This document shows, one piece after another, positions 23,221 through 39,500 of a DNA stretch of 40,988 bases; the stretch's first letter is position 1, and each line of letters begins with the position of its first letter. Where the stretch lies: UHGV virus genome UHGV-0160030, one strand, 5' to 3'. The translations under genes and the position numbers were made by a program. The DNA is from a virus. The notes below the pieces were generated by a model. It was given only the letters and a program-made list of their open reading frames with translations, made no database searches and was not told the origin of the DNA.

Positions 23221-23411
23221 GGACGCACCTCCACCGTAGTTACGTATTTAACCGGGCTACCTTTCATTGAGATGGTTTCACACATCTCTGCCGCTTTCAG
23301 TTCCGCTGTTTTTCTGGATTTATAGCGACGGTGCCAGACAGATACATCCGTGCGAACTGATACATCGTTTCTGTATTCCGTAGTGGAGATGATGATTTCG
23401 TAACTAATCAT
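23217..23411 (-). CDS. Hypothetical protein (64 aa)
   Basis: ORF with coupled overlaps. Confidence 0.45.
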   Translation of the reverse strand: MISYEIIISTTEYRNDVSVRTDVSVWHRRYKSRKTAELKAAEMCETISMKGSPVKYVTTVEVRP

Positions 23412-23959
23412 GGGCGAACCTCCTTGTCAGAACCATTCAGCCTGGAATCAACAAGTGCAGCGCCAAAAACAGCATCACCAACACGGTCGTACAGTTTGCT
23501 AGCCAGCGGAGATTCAACGGCCTTAAGCATTGGATAAAGCTGGCTTGTCCAGATTTGATGGATTTCACGCAAATGCAGGTATACGCCTCTGGCGTTTCGT
23601 GCGACAGCTGACATATCAGACGCATCGGCACCTGATAAACTCTTCTCCATCAGGTTAAAGGCGTTGATGTATGCCTCTTTGAACCGGGCAGCACGTTTAC
23701 CAGTGAAGCCCATGGCAAGGAACGCGAAGCCATCGCGGGTGATTTGATAGCAAGGTAGTTTGCGGCCTGATGCGTCGGTGTATTCACTTAACACAAAATT
23801 GTGTTCAGTAAATTCAGCGGAACATTCGAGGTTTCTAATTCTATCTAAAACCCGCTCATGCCGTTTAGTAAAGTAATTAGCTACTGCAAGAGATGTGGTG
23901 ACAACGCGACCATTGATAATCGTGATTTCAGGGTGAGATTGGGTTGGGAGAGTAGTCAT
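23408..23959 (-). CDS. Phage regulatory protein Rha family
   Basis: ITIINGRVVTTSLAVANYFTKRHERVLDRIRNL...ITRDGFAFLAMGFTGKRAARFKEAYINAFN typical Rha signature; start moved to ATG 23959 (MTTLPTQ...). Confidence 0.7.
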   Translation of the reverse strand: MTTLPTQSHPEITIINGRVVTTSLAVANYFTKRHERVLDRIRNLECSAEFTEHNFVLSEYTDASGRKLPCYQITRDGFAFLAMGFTGKRAARFKEAYINAFNLMEKSLSGADASDMSAVARNARGVYLHLREIHQIWTSQLYPMLKAVESPLASKLYDRVGDAVFGAALVDSRLNGSDKEVRP

Positions 23960-24129
23960 GGTGACAGCCCCTATGTTGAATTCAATGAACTCACCACCAA
24001 GGCTTTCCACGACCATATAGGTGGTGAGACGTACAGGGGTGGAAATACCGGTCAACATAGAACCCGGCCCAACCGAAGTTGGCCCTGCACGCCCCACCAT
24101 AATTTGGGCGTAACGATGCTCATGACACG

Positions 24130-24150
24130 AAAAAACCGCATGAGCGCGGT
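24130..24150 (-). terminator. tR1-like intrinsic terminator in the early rightward operon
   Basis: plus strand aaaaaaccgcatgagcgcggt; minus transcript ACCGC-gcucau-GCGGU followed by U6. Confidence 0.55.
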
Positions 24151-24370
24151 TGTGCTCTATATTGAATTTCGGGTTTCCACGCCCGGCACCCGCTTTATAA
24201 GGTGCCTGAGCAGTGTAACGTCCCGGAATTGCAGAATCAATATTTGGTCTTGAAATGATCATATAGCTGCTGATATCTTTAGAACTGTTCTTGGATGTTT
24301 CGGAGCCGTTTTATGCGAAACAGCTCCCCGTTATTGATGTTGAGTGAGCCGGGTTACTCCCGGCTTTTTT

Positions 24371-25078
24371 TCATCGCTGCCAACCAATAACCTGAAATAA
24401 CCCCATTTTCGGGTGATACCAGCGAGTCCCTCGCGGTTCTGCTTCCTCCATAACCCGATAAAAAGCAGCCATAAACGGTTCCACAGCAACAATTGCGCGA
24501 CGTGACAACAATCCGTCCGGCGTCATGAACTCATGGGTGTCTGTAGGAATCTGATAGGCGTTCACCAGATTGCGGCATTTATCATCTGACAAACCGGTTT
24601 TTGCTTTCAGTTGGCGATATCCGGCATAGCCCTCACGAATAGTGCCCTTTTTAATTTGCTCGACTGTTTCAGCAACGTGGCTGACTTTTTCTTCCACCTG
24701 AGTGATCCGTTTCTGTTGGCGAACGGCTTCAAGAGCCATCGCGGCAACCATTTCGATTTCGCTCATTGGCTTACGGATCTGTTCTTCCAGTTCGCGCCAG
24801 CGATCTACCAGGCGAGCAGTGAATTCAGGGCAGAGCTGTGCGACGACAATGATGCTGTCGCGCTTACCTTGTTCTCCTTCAAACAGGTAATGCTCATATT
24901 GAACTTTAAAACCTAAGTTATTGATTTTCTCGGAAACAGCCATTGGCGGTTTCCGGATGATGTTTTTAGCAACCAGGCGTTCGATACTACGTTTAACATC
25001 TGAGTGCTGACTACCCACCAGCTCTGCGATCTCAACGCTGGTCATGGATGCTTTGTCGTTAAAAATTGCGGTGTTCAT
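24371..25078 (-). CDS. Antirepressor-like regulatory protein (Rha/AntA-type N-terminal domain)
   Basis: 235 aa; N-terminal MTSVEIAELVGSQHSDVKRSIERL; ATGA overlap with the upstream small ORF. Confidence 0.6.
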   Translation of the reverse strand: MNTAIFNDKASMTSVEIAELVGSQHSDVKRSIERLVAKNIIRKPPMAVSEKINNLGFKVQYEHYLFEGEQGKRDSIIVVAQLCPEFTARLVDRWRELEEQIRKPMSEIEMVAAMALEAVRQQKRITQVEEKVSHVAETVEQIKKGTIREGYAGYRQLKAKTGLSDDKCRNLVNAYQIPTDTHEFMTPDGLLSRRAIVAVEPFMAAFYRVMEEAEPRGTRWYHPKMGLFQVIGWQR

Positions 25079-25302: not shown

Positions 25303-25413
25303 TCTTTAGTCTCACACCAGATACTTTGTTATCCAACGATGTTAACCACAGGAACCCAAAGTATCAAGAAATTCTGTTACTTTAGTATCAACAGCCATGA
25401 GAGGAGAAGAAAA
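25303..25413. promoter_or_regulatory. Right operator/promoter region (divergent PR/PRM-like) with CCAAAGTATCAA-type operator motifs
   Basis: GTATCA at 25361 and 25385, inverted partial copy at 25320; 12-mer CCAAAGTATCAA at 25356 repeated at 26095. Confidence 0.55.
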
Positions 25414-26070
25414 ATGAAGTCTTTAGGTGAACGTCTCATCAACGCACGGCAAAAAGCTGGGTTAACACAAGATGCGTTGGCTAAAAAAGCTGGGGTCACC
25501 AGAGTTGCAATCAGTAAAGCCGAGCAAGGCCTTACAAAAAGTTTCAACGGTGACACCCTTTTTAAAGTTGCAGCTGCACTGCAGTGTTCACCGCAGTGGC
25601 TTCAGAACGGAGATGAAAAAGATAAGCATTGGGAAAATAATGTTAAGAGCTGCCCACAGAGAGACACAGCATACTCTTACCCTGTAATTAACTGGGTTCA
25701 GGCAGGATTATTCGCAACTTCTGGTGATGACTACAACATGTATGATCAGGATAATTGGAGGCATTCTGTAAAATACGCTGGTGAGAGGGGGTTCTGGCTG
25801 GAAGTGCACGGAGACTCAATGACTTCGCCCGTAGGAATAACATTTCCTGAAGGAATGTCGATCCTTGTCAACCCAGATAAAGAAGTTTTTTCAGGGTGTT
25901 ACGTCATCGCCAGAAAAAAATCCACCAATGAAGCAACATTCAAAAAATATATTTCTGACATGGGAAAGGCGTTTCTAAAGCCCCTTAATCCACAATATCC
26001 AATCATAGAAATGGACAATGATTGCGAAATAGTAGGTGTTGTGGTTGATGCCAGGTGGGATATTTTCTAA
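25414..26070 (+). CDS. cI: CI-type repressor: N-terminal HTH plus C-terminal S24 (LexA-like) autopeptidase domain
   Basis: 218 aa from ATG 25414 with GAGGAG RBS; HTH LTQDALAKKAGVTRVAISKAEQG; Ala-Gly cleavage site; GDSM serine motif. Confidence 0.85.
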   Translation: MKSLGERLINARQKAGLTQDALAKKAGVTRVAISKAEQGLTKSFNGDTLFKVAAALQCSPQWLQNGDEKDKHWENNVKSCPQRDTAYSYPVINWVQAGLFATSGDDYNMYDQDNWRHSVKYAGERGFWLEVHGDSMTSPVGITFPEGMSILVNPDKEVFSGCYVIARKKSTNEATFKKYISDMGKAFLKPLNPQYPIIEMDNDCEIVGVVVDARWDIF

Positions 26071-26173
26071 CCAGACACAAAACACAAAAAGAAACCAAAG
26101 TATCAAAAATCACTTGCCACACCTTGATACCTTAGTTACCATAAAACAAAGTTCGTAACTGAGGTATCATCTC
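26071..26173. promoter_or_regulatory. Left operator/promoter region (PL-like) with the same operator motif
   Basis: CCAAAGTATCAA at 26095, inverted TTGATAC at 26124, GTATCA at 26164; candidate -35 TTGCCA / -10 TACCAT. Confidence 0.5.
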
Positions 26174-26590
26174 ATGATCAATAAAGCTACAACTCTTGAC
26201 TGTCTCGAAGAACTGAAAAACCTCGGCAGCCTCATTACACTAATAGCAAAAGCAACACCTGATGCTACGCTCTCTAGCGATATAGAGTCATGCGCAGGGC
26301 TGGCATGGGATATGACAAATAGCATATCCAGAAAGCTATCGTCAGCAATGCTTTTACAGAATAAAAATTCTGCAATCAACAACCGTCTTCGCACCCAACG
26401 CGAAGCCTGCGGCTTAACAACCGCCGAACTCGCCAGGCTGCTCGATCTCGATGAAGAAATTATCATCCAGTGGGAGAGCGGAGAGTATGAACCAACTATC
26501 AGTATGCTTATCCCACTGGCAAATATTCTTGGCTGCGATCCGATGTGGCTGTTAACTGGTAAACCAACAGGTGGGGATACTTGCGCATGA
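26174..26590 (+). CDS. XRE-family HTH protein with N-terminal extension, first gene of leftward operon
   Basis: 138 aa; C-terminal HTH LTTAELARLLDLDEEIIIQWESGEYEP. Confidence 0.6.
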   Translation: MINKATTLDCLEELKNLGSLITLIAKATPDATLSSDIESCAGLAWDMTNSISRKLSSAMLLQNKNSAINNRLRTQREACGLTTAELARLLDLDEEIIIQWESGEYEPTISMLIPLANILGCDPMWLLTGKPTGGDTCA

Positions 26591-36515: not shown

Positions 36516-39500
36516 TCAGCTAATCGTGATGCCTGCAGTGGCTTTCTTCATCACAACAACCAGCAAATCGCTGATACTTGCTGTGGGATACCAGCCATTT
36601 ACCCACCATGCTGATACAGAAAACTCCAGCGTCATGTCGCCGCGACCAGCAGGCATATCAATAACACCACTGTAAACCAGCGTATTATCCATCGCGGTAC
36701 GGTTATAAATTTCAGCACCGTTTTTCTTCACTATCAGGCGGCATGACGAATAAGTATCGCTGTTCTCCCGCTCATGTCTGGCACCGCTGAAAGCCACCGC
36801 CGGAATAACAATCTGCCGGTTAAACGGCTGATCGTCATAAACCCTGACGGTAATGGTTCCTGATGGCCAACGCTTCGGTGCACGGGAGTCACGAGGGAAA
36901 GCCTTACCCACTGTTTTAACGAGATCGCCTTCAATCTGGTTTGCAGACAGTTTCCCTCTGATGACACAGTTCTTGTTAATGGTGACATTATTGAGCGTGC
37001 CGGTATTCGCCGTGATGGCTCCACTGATATCCGCATTGCGGGCTGTCAGCCTGCCATCCGGCGTCAGGGAAAACGTCGGAGGATTGCCGGATGACGTGAT
37101 GCTCACCGCAAACAGTCGCTTCAGGAACACGTCGTTCATGAACAGCTGATTCCCCTGCGCCACAAACAGCGGCGTGGTGTTGCCGTTCTCCGGGGTAATC
37201 ATCGCAATGCGATCGGCCTGCAGCAGAATGTTACTCAGGGTCTGACCATCAACATCCTCAATCCCCGCACCAATCCCGGCCACATAGGGAATACCGTTTT
37301 TTGTTTTCTGCACCTTCAGCATATACATGGCATTCAGCTCATTGCGCGTGTCTGACTGAACCCGCTGGATTTGCTGTATGGTCACGGCCTGGTCACCCAG
37401 CTTTTTATCCGTGGTCGAGGTAATTTCACTCCCTTTTTTATCCACGTACTGGCGGACCTGTGCTATCTGTCGGGCGTTTTCTGACTGCCCCTGGCTGACA
37501 GTCTGTGAGATTTCACTGCTCACCCGGTCCACTTTCTGGCTCACCTGCGCGATGGCCAGTGTCTGATCCTCATTCTTTTTCGCAACCAGCTGCGTGAGGC
37601 TGTTTTCCGCCTTCCCGATTTTCCGGGTCACTTCTGCGATATCCGTGTCCATCCGCTGACGGATATCTTCTTCCAGTTGCGTGACCTCCGTACGCAGCGC
37701 TGAAGCATCAATGCGCTCTTTCAGTGCCTGACCCAGAAGCGTCTCATCTATCAGCCCCCGGAAAATTTCCAGATACCCTTCACCATCATTGCTGGGCTGC
37801 CCGCTGGCTTCCACAAAAGCAGATTTTCCCACCAGGTTGACGCTTCGCACGTAAAACCAGAAATCCGTCCCCGGCTTAATCCGGCTCCCCTGGACAGTCC
37901 ACTGACTGCCGGTCCCCAGATAACGGGCAGATTTTTCCACCTGTGCTGTGTTCGTGATGCGTTTTTCTGAGAACCAGAATTCAAACTGTACCGTCGGGTC
38001 ATACACCGCAAGACGCGGGACCGCCGTTATCTGAAAATACCCCGGCGTCAGCTCAATGGTGGCGGGTTTTGCAGGTGCGTTAATCCGGAACGATACCGAC
38101 GCCGGATCGCCCTGCTGTCCCCGGGCATTTACCGCCCGGACCGTCAGCGTGTAACGCCCCAGCGCCAGCTGCCTGAAGCGGTAAGTGGTTTCCGCCGTCC
38201 GGGCCGTGCTGACCAGCCGCTCACTGCCGTCATCCGCTGTTACGGTCAGACGGAGCAGGAAGCTCACGCCCTTCACCACCTTCGGCGTGTCCCAGCGCGC
38301 CAGCACCTGATATTCCCCGCTGTCTGCGGTGACTTCGGCGGTCAGGTGCTGCACCGCTGGCGGCGTGACACCATTCACCGTGCCGCTCTGGTCGCCGTCA
38401 AAGTGCGCTCCGTTATCCACGATGGCCTCTTTTTCCGGTACATGCTGCACGGCGGTGATGGCATACGCACCGTCATCGTTCTCCCGGATACTCACACAGC
38501 GGAACAGGCGCTGGCGCAGCGTCGGCAGCTTCAGCCCCCACACGCTGTATTCGGCAACGCCGTCAGGAATACGGCTCACTTTCACCTTCACGCCGTCGGT
38601 GACGGACTGGACCTCCACGCTGACCGGATTCCCACTTCCGTCAACCAGGCTTATCAGCGTGGTGCCGGAGGATGACAGCATGATTTCACGGTCGAGCGTC
38701 AGCGTCCGGGTCTGGCTGTTCACCGCCAGCACGCGCCCGCCGGTGCTGATACCGGCATAGTCATCATCACAGATTTCAATGACATCGCCCGGAACATGGC
38801 GAAGCCCTTCTGCGCCGACGCTGAAGTCCACGGTCTGCGTTTCCAGCAGTTCTGTTTTAATCAGCCACAGCCCGGCGCGGTGTGCCTGCCCCCGGCTGGT
38901 ACAGCCAAAGGCATCCATCTTCGTGACGTTACGACCGTAACGGGCAATGGCCTGCGTGTCCTCCACAAGCTCTGTTGCCGTCTCCCAGCCGTTATCCGGG
39001 TCAATCCAGTTCACCTCAACGGCATTATGGCGGTCCTTCAGGGCGCTGAAGCTGTAGCGGAACGGCGCGCCATCATCCGGCATCACCACATTACTGCGGT
39101 TATAGGTCCACACCTTATCCGACGGTCGGTCCTGCACGAACGTCAGCGTCTGCCCGTTCCATACCGGCATACAGCGCATCGCCGAGCAAAAATCACTGAG
39201 CACATCCCACGCCTTGCGCTGTGTGGTCAGGTACGCATTACAGGTGATGCGCGGCTCCGTGCCGCCAAAGCCGTCCGGCACTGACTGGTCGCAGTACTGG
39301 CCGATGACATACAGCGCCCATTTATCCACATCCGCTGCACCAAGACGTTTCCCCATGCCGTAGCGCGGATGGGTCAGCATATCCCACAGACACCAGGCCA
39401 TGTTGTTGCTGTATGCCGGTTTAAACGTTCCGTCCCAGATACCGCTGTATTGCCGCGTCTGCGGGTTATAATTCGACGGCACCTGCAGAATACGCCCGCG

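Follow-up and report, generated by a model that had tools for sequence, protein, structure and literature searches.

Fourteen-bp dyads on either side of a cI-type repressor gene are the predicted right and left operators of a phiP27-type immunity switch

Introduction

The stretch of DNA analyzed here, which we call the window, is the entire 40,988-bp virus genome UHGV-0160030, a siphovirus-like E. coli prophage or phage. A gene map and a Pfam domain scan gave its immunity region a lambdoid layout, in which the gene for a cI-type repressor with an S24 peptidase domain is flanked on one side by a divergently oriented gene in the position of cro and on the other side by a gene for a 138-aa protein, the first of an operon that starts at 26174 and continues with further plus-strand open reading frames (ORFs) on the same strand (Table 1). 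A preliminary description of positions 25303–26173, based on the letters alone, had named an S24-domain repressor, a cro-position gene, and an operon beyond cI, and the layout is as claimed there. The same description had noted a 12-mer repeated at both flanks of cI, together with scattered copies of a hexamer, and had suggested that these repeats form operator sets for the S24-domain repressor resembling the right operator (OR) and left operator (OL) of other lambdoid phages.

Results

Six dyads occupy the two intergenic regions beside cI

The two intergenic regions that carry the motifs, 25303–25413 and 26071–26173 (103 bp), total 214 bp. Their repeat unit is neither the hexamer nor the 12-mer but a 14-bp imperfect palindrome, GATAC-N4-GTATC, which occurs three times between the cro-position gene and cI (sites A, B, and C) and three times between cI and the next rightward gene (sites D, E, and F). 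The centre-to-centre spacings are 32 and 24 bp for A–B and B–C and 35 and 29 bp for D–E and E–F. The 12-mer, CCAAAGTATCAA, comprises the right half of sites B and D together with a common flank and spacer, and it is present at both cI flanks as first noticed, with exactly two copies in the window (25356 and 26095) compared to an expectation of 0.19 even with one mismatch allowed. We located the hexamer, GTATCA/TGATAC, in the intergenic regions at 25361, 25385, 26100, 26125 (minus strand), and 26164; these positions include the three further copies listed in the preliminary description (25385, 26125, and 26164), and at 25320, where an inverted partial copy was listed, the letters GATAC make up the left half of site A. 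The statement that five or more hexamers lie within about 200 bp stands as a count, with five copies in 214 bp, but not as a definition of the unit, which is the dyad with its six sites. An unsupervised repeat search connected each of the six sites with the others in both orientations and returned no alternative repeated motif in either intergenic region. A logo of 102 non-independent half-sites reads T-T-G-A-(T/A)-A-C-Y, with G1, A4, and C5 nearly invariant, and four consensus half-sites are preceded by T(T), which yields TTGATA.

Motif enrichment had been proposed as a check on the operator assignment. The hexamer is indeed locally dense, with 5 copies in 214 bp compared to 0.17 expected from the outside rate (Poisson P ~1e-6), a density ~30 times that found outside. 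Window-wide, there are 37 copies versus 15.0 ± 3.8 expected from dinucleotide-preserving shuffles, and 32 of these 37 lie outside the operator regions, mostly within ORFs; this excess may reflect codon or k-mer bias. Because it is common throughout the window, the hexamer alone is a weak statistic, and we dropped this 2.5-fold over-represented sequence as a descriptor in favor of the dyad. Matches to GWWACNNNNGTATC number four in the window, all inside the two intergenic regions, versus 0.17 expected. With ≤2 mismatches, GATACNNNNGTATC has 23 matches in the window compared to 10.7 ± 3.2 expected, and six of the 23 fall within the 214 bp (0.5% of the sequence), where 0.06–0.09 are expected (P ~1e-10 to 1e-9), although this enrichment figure is partly circular in that the dyad consensus was derived from the same six sites. 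The only other match in the window with ≤1 mismatch is GATACCGCTGTATT at 39438–39451; it falls within a minus-strand ORF of 1,232 aa and, as a probable chance occurrence, was not treated as an operator.

Table 1. Sites, predicted promoter elements, and genes of the immunity region. PR and PL, right and left early promoters; PRM, promoter for repressor maintenance; HTH, helix-turn-helix.
Feature	Position	Strand	Remarks
Site A	25320–25333		GATAC-TTTG-TTATC; one mismatch to dyad consensus; nearest cro-position gene; OR1-like position
Site B	25352–25365		GAACC-CAAA-GTATC; holds 12-mer copy at 25356; OR2-like position
Site C	25376–25389		GTTAC-TTTA-GTATC; nearest cI; OR3-like position
Site D	26091–26104		GAAAC-CAAA-GTATC; holds 12-mer copy at 26095
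Site E	26126–26139		GATAC-CTTA-GTTAC; nearly invariant across ~70 loci
Site F	26155–26168		GTAACTGAGGTATC, GTAAC-TGAG-GTATC; half-sites invariant in family alignment
Predicted PR, cro-position gene	25339–25367	−	−35 TTGATA (25367–25362), 17-bp spacer, −10 TAACAT (25344–25339)
Predicted PL, operon downstream of cI	26114–26142	+	−35 TTGCCA, 17-bp spacer, −10 TACCAT
Candidate weak PRM-type −10 for cI (speculative)	25384–25389	+	TAGTAT; within site C
cI-type repressor, 218 aa	25414–26070	+	Pfam HTH_3 6.7e-15, Peptidase_S24 3.2e-22
cro-position gene, 75 aa	25075–25302	−	divergent from cI; family phrog_4749
138-aa HTH_3 protein, first gene of PL operon	26174–26590	+	Pfam HTH_3; phrog_4739
Rha-family regulator gene	24371–25078	−	gene map; adjoins cro-position gene
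Rha-family regulator gene	23408–24262	−	gene map

Half-sites are selectively conserved among related loci

For comparison with the window, phage records, E. coli genomes, and IMG/VR contigs provided ~70 loci of this immunity type. Among them are 25 different OR and 32 different OL sequences, and the evidence that they supply is independent of the dyad consensus derived from the window. The variable-column counts left out the most divergent locus, L107, and covered 25 OR and 31 OL sequences; 9 of 60 half-site columns were variable compared to 69 of 130 other intergenic columns (Fisher p=5e-7), and 9 of 24 spacer columns were variable; the spacers of the window itself are TTTG, CAAA, TTTA, CTTA, and TGAG. 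All six sequence variants of the family keep three plus three sites at the same offsets, and the offset of site A from the cro start (16–19 bp) is kept in 9 loci. Perfect palindromes occur in relatives, at site A in Stx2_12E129_yecE (L002), where it reads GATACTTAAGTATC, and at site D in L107, where it reads GATACTTTAGTATC; the L107 repressor is 85% identical to the window cI, and the intergenic DNA of this locus is otherwise largely different.

Of 5,426 complete E. coli genomes, 275 (~5%) carry the immunity type. Immunity-region DNA of the window is 95% identical to that of phiP27 and 82–84% identical to that of several Shiga toxin (Stx) phages of the Stx1a/Stx2a types, and the window cI is 98% identical to an IMG/VR copy (L094). 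On the basis of this near-identical cI and the same predicted operator set, we assign the window to the phiP27 immunity group. PhiP27 (L001), an Stx2e phage with genes L11/L12, has all six sites at the same offsets as the window. It differs in carrying an extra 672-bp hypothetical gene, L13 (L001 3833–4504), between the cro-position and Rha genes, which is absent from the window; in the window, the cro-position and Rha-family genes overlap by 4 bp. In the records, the annotation of L11/L12 goes no further than 'putative lambda repressor', HTH-domain protein, or hypothetical protein, and no operator features are marked.

Half-site sequence varies with the recognition helix

The recognition helix of the window cI, in its N-terminal HTH, is T29-RVAISKA-E37. 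Using homologues of the cro-position protein, we reached prophages of other genera whose S24 repressors are 64% (Klebsiella/Raoultella), 54% (Providencia), and 75% (Salmonella) identical to the window cI and carry the identical recognition helix, TRVAISKAE. The OR regions of the Klebsiella, Providencia, and Salmonella prophages each contain three GATAC-type dyads, ~17, 49, and 73 from the cro start, and are unalignable outside the sites; at ≤2 mismatches, their OL regions contain 2, 3, and 1 sites, respectively. The same helix is found with the same sites across four genera. A Serratia prophage with a homologous Cro-like gene encodes a repressor that is 51% identical to the window cI and has the helix SRMAISKIE; its dyads, at the same two locations, are of the form TAAAC-N4-GTTTA, and two are perfect. 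P22 c2-type phages from IMG/VR encode repressors that have the helix SNAAISQWE and are 47% identical to the window cI overall and 43% identical over the N-terminal 70 aa; the N-terminal domain in this group is essentially that of P22 c2 (E 3.6e-34 to 1ADR), and the dyads are TTAAG-N4-CTTAA. When the three consensus dyads were scanned against the three families, in the order GATAC, TAAAC, and TTAAG, the counts were diagonal (36/0/1, 1/4/0, and 1/2/38). Because six loci of the GATAC family hold 36 GATAC-type dyads versus one TTAAG-type dyad, the window repressor is placed by sequence outside the P22 immunity group, yet it would work like P22 c2.

Among proteins in the PDB, the window cI matched lambda cI (2e-34 over residues 12–215) and the N-terminal domain of P22 c2 (1ADR; 3e-9). 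Its C-terminal domain is most similar to that of lambda cI, and in the alignment with lambda cI the Ala-Gly cleavage site (Ala97-Gly98) and the catalytic Ser/Lys dyad (Ser135 and Lys178) are conserved, whereas its DNA-binding domain is closer to P22 c2 and 434 than to lambda cI, and P22 c2, not lambda cI, offers the closest mechanistic model of how it would recognize DNA. P22, with its homologous repressor (c2; 2R1J, 1ADR), likewise has two trios of dyad sites, six in all, on the two sides of its repressor gene, and its operators have the same geometry of 5-bp half-sites around a variable, A/T-rich 4-bp centre (PMC4267663; PMC5175364). The central four base pairs are not contacted in P22 c2 structures (PMC4267663), and the consensus of the P22 operators, known from experiment and with six natural sites, is ATTTAAGATATCTTAAAT, with TTAAG-N4-CTTAA as its core (PMC5175364). 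The half-site is TTAAG in P22 and GATAC in the window, and this difference coincides with three recognition-helix substitutions, in which Asn32, Gln37, and Trp38 of P22 c2 correspond to Arg30, Lys35, and Ala36 of the window cI. The equivalent of P22 Val33, which packs against thymine methyls (PMC5175364), is retained as Val31.

Two further comparisons involved repressors of other types. The heteroimmune phage Stx2_14040 has the same neighboring genes, including the Rha gene, with cI and cro unrelated to those of the window, and contains no GATAC dyads but AATCAAG-type repeats instead. A scan of genome contigs with the window cI, covering one genome per species, found only relatives of ≤51% identity, most of which have different HTH motifs and no GATAC dyads and are usable as negative controls only.

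Each trio of sites spans a predicted early promoter

Promoters were called by a scan for the sigma-70 consensus, with +1 taken ~7 nt after the −10 element. Relative to the predicted PR, sites A, B, and C cover ~−1 to +13, −33 to −20, and −57 to −44, and relative to the predicted PL, sites F, E, and D cover ~+6 to +20, −23 to −10, and −58 to −45. In both trios, one site lies upstream of the predicted promoter, another falls within the promoter core, and the remaining one coincides with the start point or closely follows it. The consensus half of site B and its flank double as the predicted PR −35 element, TTGATA. Site E lies between the −35 and −10 elements of the predicted PL, and its degenerate right half, GTTAC, which is conserved, overlaps the −10 element TACCAT; the ribosome-binding site of the 138-aa gene, GAGG, is within site F. 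A PR equivalent, TTGATA-17/18-TAnnnT, is present at the same place in 8 of 8 loci checked, including the Klebsiella, Providencia, and Salmonella prophages, and a PL equivalent is present in 7 of 8; both predicted PL hexamers are invariant in the family alignment. For cI itself, TAGTAT/TAGTTT is conserved inside site C among relatives and, weak as it is, provides the only plausible PRM −10 element.

Discussion

Model of the switch and observations that weigh against it

We conclude that the two motif clusters very probably act as OR and OL in a lambdoid immunity switch and are predicted to be bound by cI. Selective conservation of the half-sites, their retention across genera, and the covariation of half-site with recognition helix support the OR/OL-like operator sets that had been suggested for the S24 repressor. 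In our model, a cI dimer would bind each dyad through its HTH, with TRVAISKAE as the recognition helix, in the geometry of P22 c2, in which the outer bases would be contacted and the variable, A/T-rich 4 bp at the centre would not. Repressor at sites A and B would block PR, which would drive cro, the Rha genes, and replication, and repressor at E and F would block PL, with C and D being the promoter-distal members of their trios. The 138-aa gene, as the first of the PL operon, would be controlled from sites D–F. Bound over the weak cI promoter region, site C could give negative autoregulation, and site B could stimulate this weak promoter. RecA-stimulated self-cleavage of cI would release repression, and such RecA-dependent derepression is expected because Ala97-Gly98 and Ser135/Lys178 are conserved. 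The 75-aa Cro-like protein would probably bind the same sites and thereby lock in lytic growth.

Several observations, in addition to the circularity of the enrichment figure, weigh against this interpretation. None of the sites in the window is symmetric; each pairs a consensus half with a degenerate one. The A–B (32 bp) and D–E (35 bp) spacings exceed those of lambda, and pairwise cooperativity is not assured. The cI and Cro-like proteins co-occur in all loci examined, and the comparison of loci cannot separate their roles. Because no consensus-like sigma-70 promoter facing cI was identified, either in the window scan or in most of the 8 loci, the autoregulatory part of the model is weak and PRM is putative. 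Finally, we found no binding, footprint, or transcript data for this repressor in the searchable literature, which did not cover the original phiP27 paper.

Alternative explanations

It is unlikely that the dyads, although real, are read by a different HTH protein, either the 75-aa Cro-like protein alone or the 138-aa protein, while the S24 repressor recognizes something else. Three HTH-type proteins are encoded within 1.5 kb, and the gene for one of them, the Cro-like protein, covaries with cI in every locus examined. This 75-aa protein has a predicted all-alpha Cro fold, whereas searches of Pfam, NCBIfam, and PDB profiles returned nothing meaningful; its predicted fold matches that of P22 Cro, though there is no detectable sequence similarity between the two. 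By analogy, it is a likely second ligand of the same operators, and in the known lambdoid switches of lambda, 434, and P22, Cro uses the operators of the repressor rather than replacing the repressor, which speaks against Cro as the sole reader. The 138-aa protein is dissociated from the sites in two loci and was rejected as a dyad ligand: the heteroimmune phage Stx2_14040, which lacks GATAC dyads, encodes a 242-aa regulator (L004 3461–4189) with two HTH domains in tandem, one of which shares 84% identity with the HTH of the 138-aa protein, and the Serratia locus has OL sites without a homologue of the 138-aa protein. Because its HTH is shared at this level with a heteroimmune phage, the 138-aa gene appears to behave as a module independent of immunity type. 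A repressor that recognized something else would also have to do so in two regions where no second repeated motif was found. That cI is a ligand of the dyads is argued by their 5-N4-5 geometry, which is exactly that of its structurally characterized homologue, P22 c2 (PMC4267663).

Still less likely is a reading confined to sites D–F, which would halt read-through from cI as a roadblock or attenuator, or would be a relic of OR duplication, rather than the operator set of PL. In the window, phiP27, the Stx-phage variants, and L107, the DNA that separates the cI stop from the PL region (within 26071–26173 of the window) has no hairpin or T-run terminator, whereas an obvious intrinsic terminator directly follows cI in the Serratia, Klebsiella, Providencia, Salmonella, and P22-type relatives (L006 3161–3215, L122, L124, L126, L110–L117), and cI transcripts may read into the 138-aa HTH gene unless repressor at D–F blocks them. 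The resemblance between site D with its flanks and site B with its flanks (26 nt at 81% identity) would fit a duplication. Neither version accounts for the conserved −35/−10 pair placed precisely around site E in 7 of 8 loci or for a trio whose position and sequence are retained even beside flanks that cannot be aligned, and a roadblock role would add to promoter repression, not exclude it. That the repeats are reiterated promoter elements or part of the window-wide GTATCA excess, rather than protein-specific operators, is highly improbable, for although GTATCA is 2.5-fold over-represented and four consensus half-sites give the −35-like TTGATA, one of them as the predicted PR −35 element, this explanation leaves unexplained why inverted half-sites always stand 4 bp apart, why perfect palindromes occur in relatives, why the three-plus-three arrangement keeps fixed offsets across genera, why half-sites are better conserved than neighboring bases, and why the half-site switches with the repressor recognition helix.

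Implications

Taking the dyads as cI operators, a broader proposal would join several of these observations, and we offer it tentatively, as possible but doubtful. The locus would represent a widespread, so far uncharacterized immunity specificity within the P22 c2 structural family, in which the Asn-to-Arg, Gln-to-Lys, and Trp-to-Ala substitutions re-code TTAAG to GATAC, and the Serratia repressor, with Val-to-Met and Ala-to-Ile substitutions, reads TAAAC. The E. coli lineage would have lost the terminator after cI, and repressor at D–F would also serve as a roadblock that insulates the early-left operon and its first gene, which encodes the second HTH regulator, from cI read-through.

The architecture of the switch is textbook, and mechanistically it is ordinary. 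The consensus supplies a concrete operator prediction for the immunity type of the E. coli genomes counted above, of phiP27, and of several Stx1a/Stx2a-converting phages, in which spontaneous induction and toxin release proceed at a rate governed by repressor–operator affinity. We found no published operator definition for the phiP27 immunity group in the searchable literature (again with the original phiP27 paper outside its coverage); phiP27 operators and repressor receive passing mentions only, and a full-text search with five operator sequences returned only unrelated Cannabis papers. The half-sites GATAC, TAAAC, and TTAAG correspond to three variants of one helix, anchored by the solved P22 c2–DNA structure, and this series makes a compact natural data set for a change of HTH specificity without a change of operator geometry. 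The cro-position family phrog_4749, previously unannotated, can be labelled Cro-like.

Comparison with other switches and neighboring genes

The window has the same overall logic and gene order as the lambda cI/Cro switch, with three sites per early promoter. The operators are 14 bp (5-N4-5) compared to 17 bp in lambda, unlike in lambda, only ~775 bp separate OL from OR and this interval contains no rex genes, and the window cI has a Shine-Dalgarno leader compared to the leaderless start of lambda cI. The Stx phage 933W also has a lambdoid switch with dyad operators in OR and OL, in which the sites are 15 bp around a central base pair, three in OR and two in OL (PMC3317979; PMC8065619); their sequence, length, and OL number differ from those of the window.

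In the place of lambda cII, two consecutive Rha-family regulator genes follow the cro-position gene (Table 1), the second of them with an Ash-family N-terminal domain, and no cII homologue was seen in this stretch (23408–25078). The 138-aa protein has weak DicA and cII-like matches. The window is 97% identical to PV340570.1 (Escherichia phage PhiR49_2) over 1–24937, with only 36% of the immunity region matched, and it looks like a close relative, or a mosaic, with a different immunity module.

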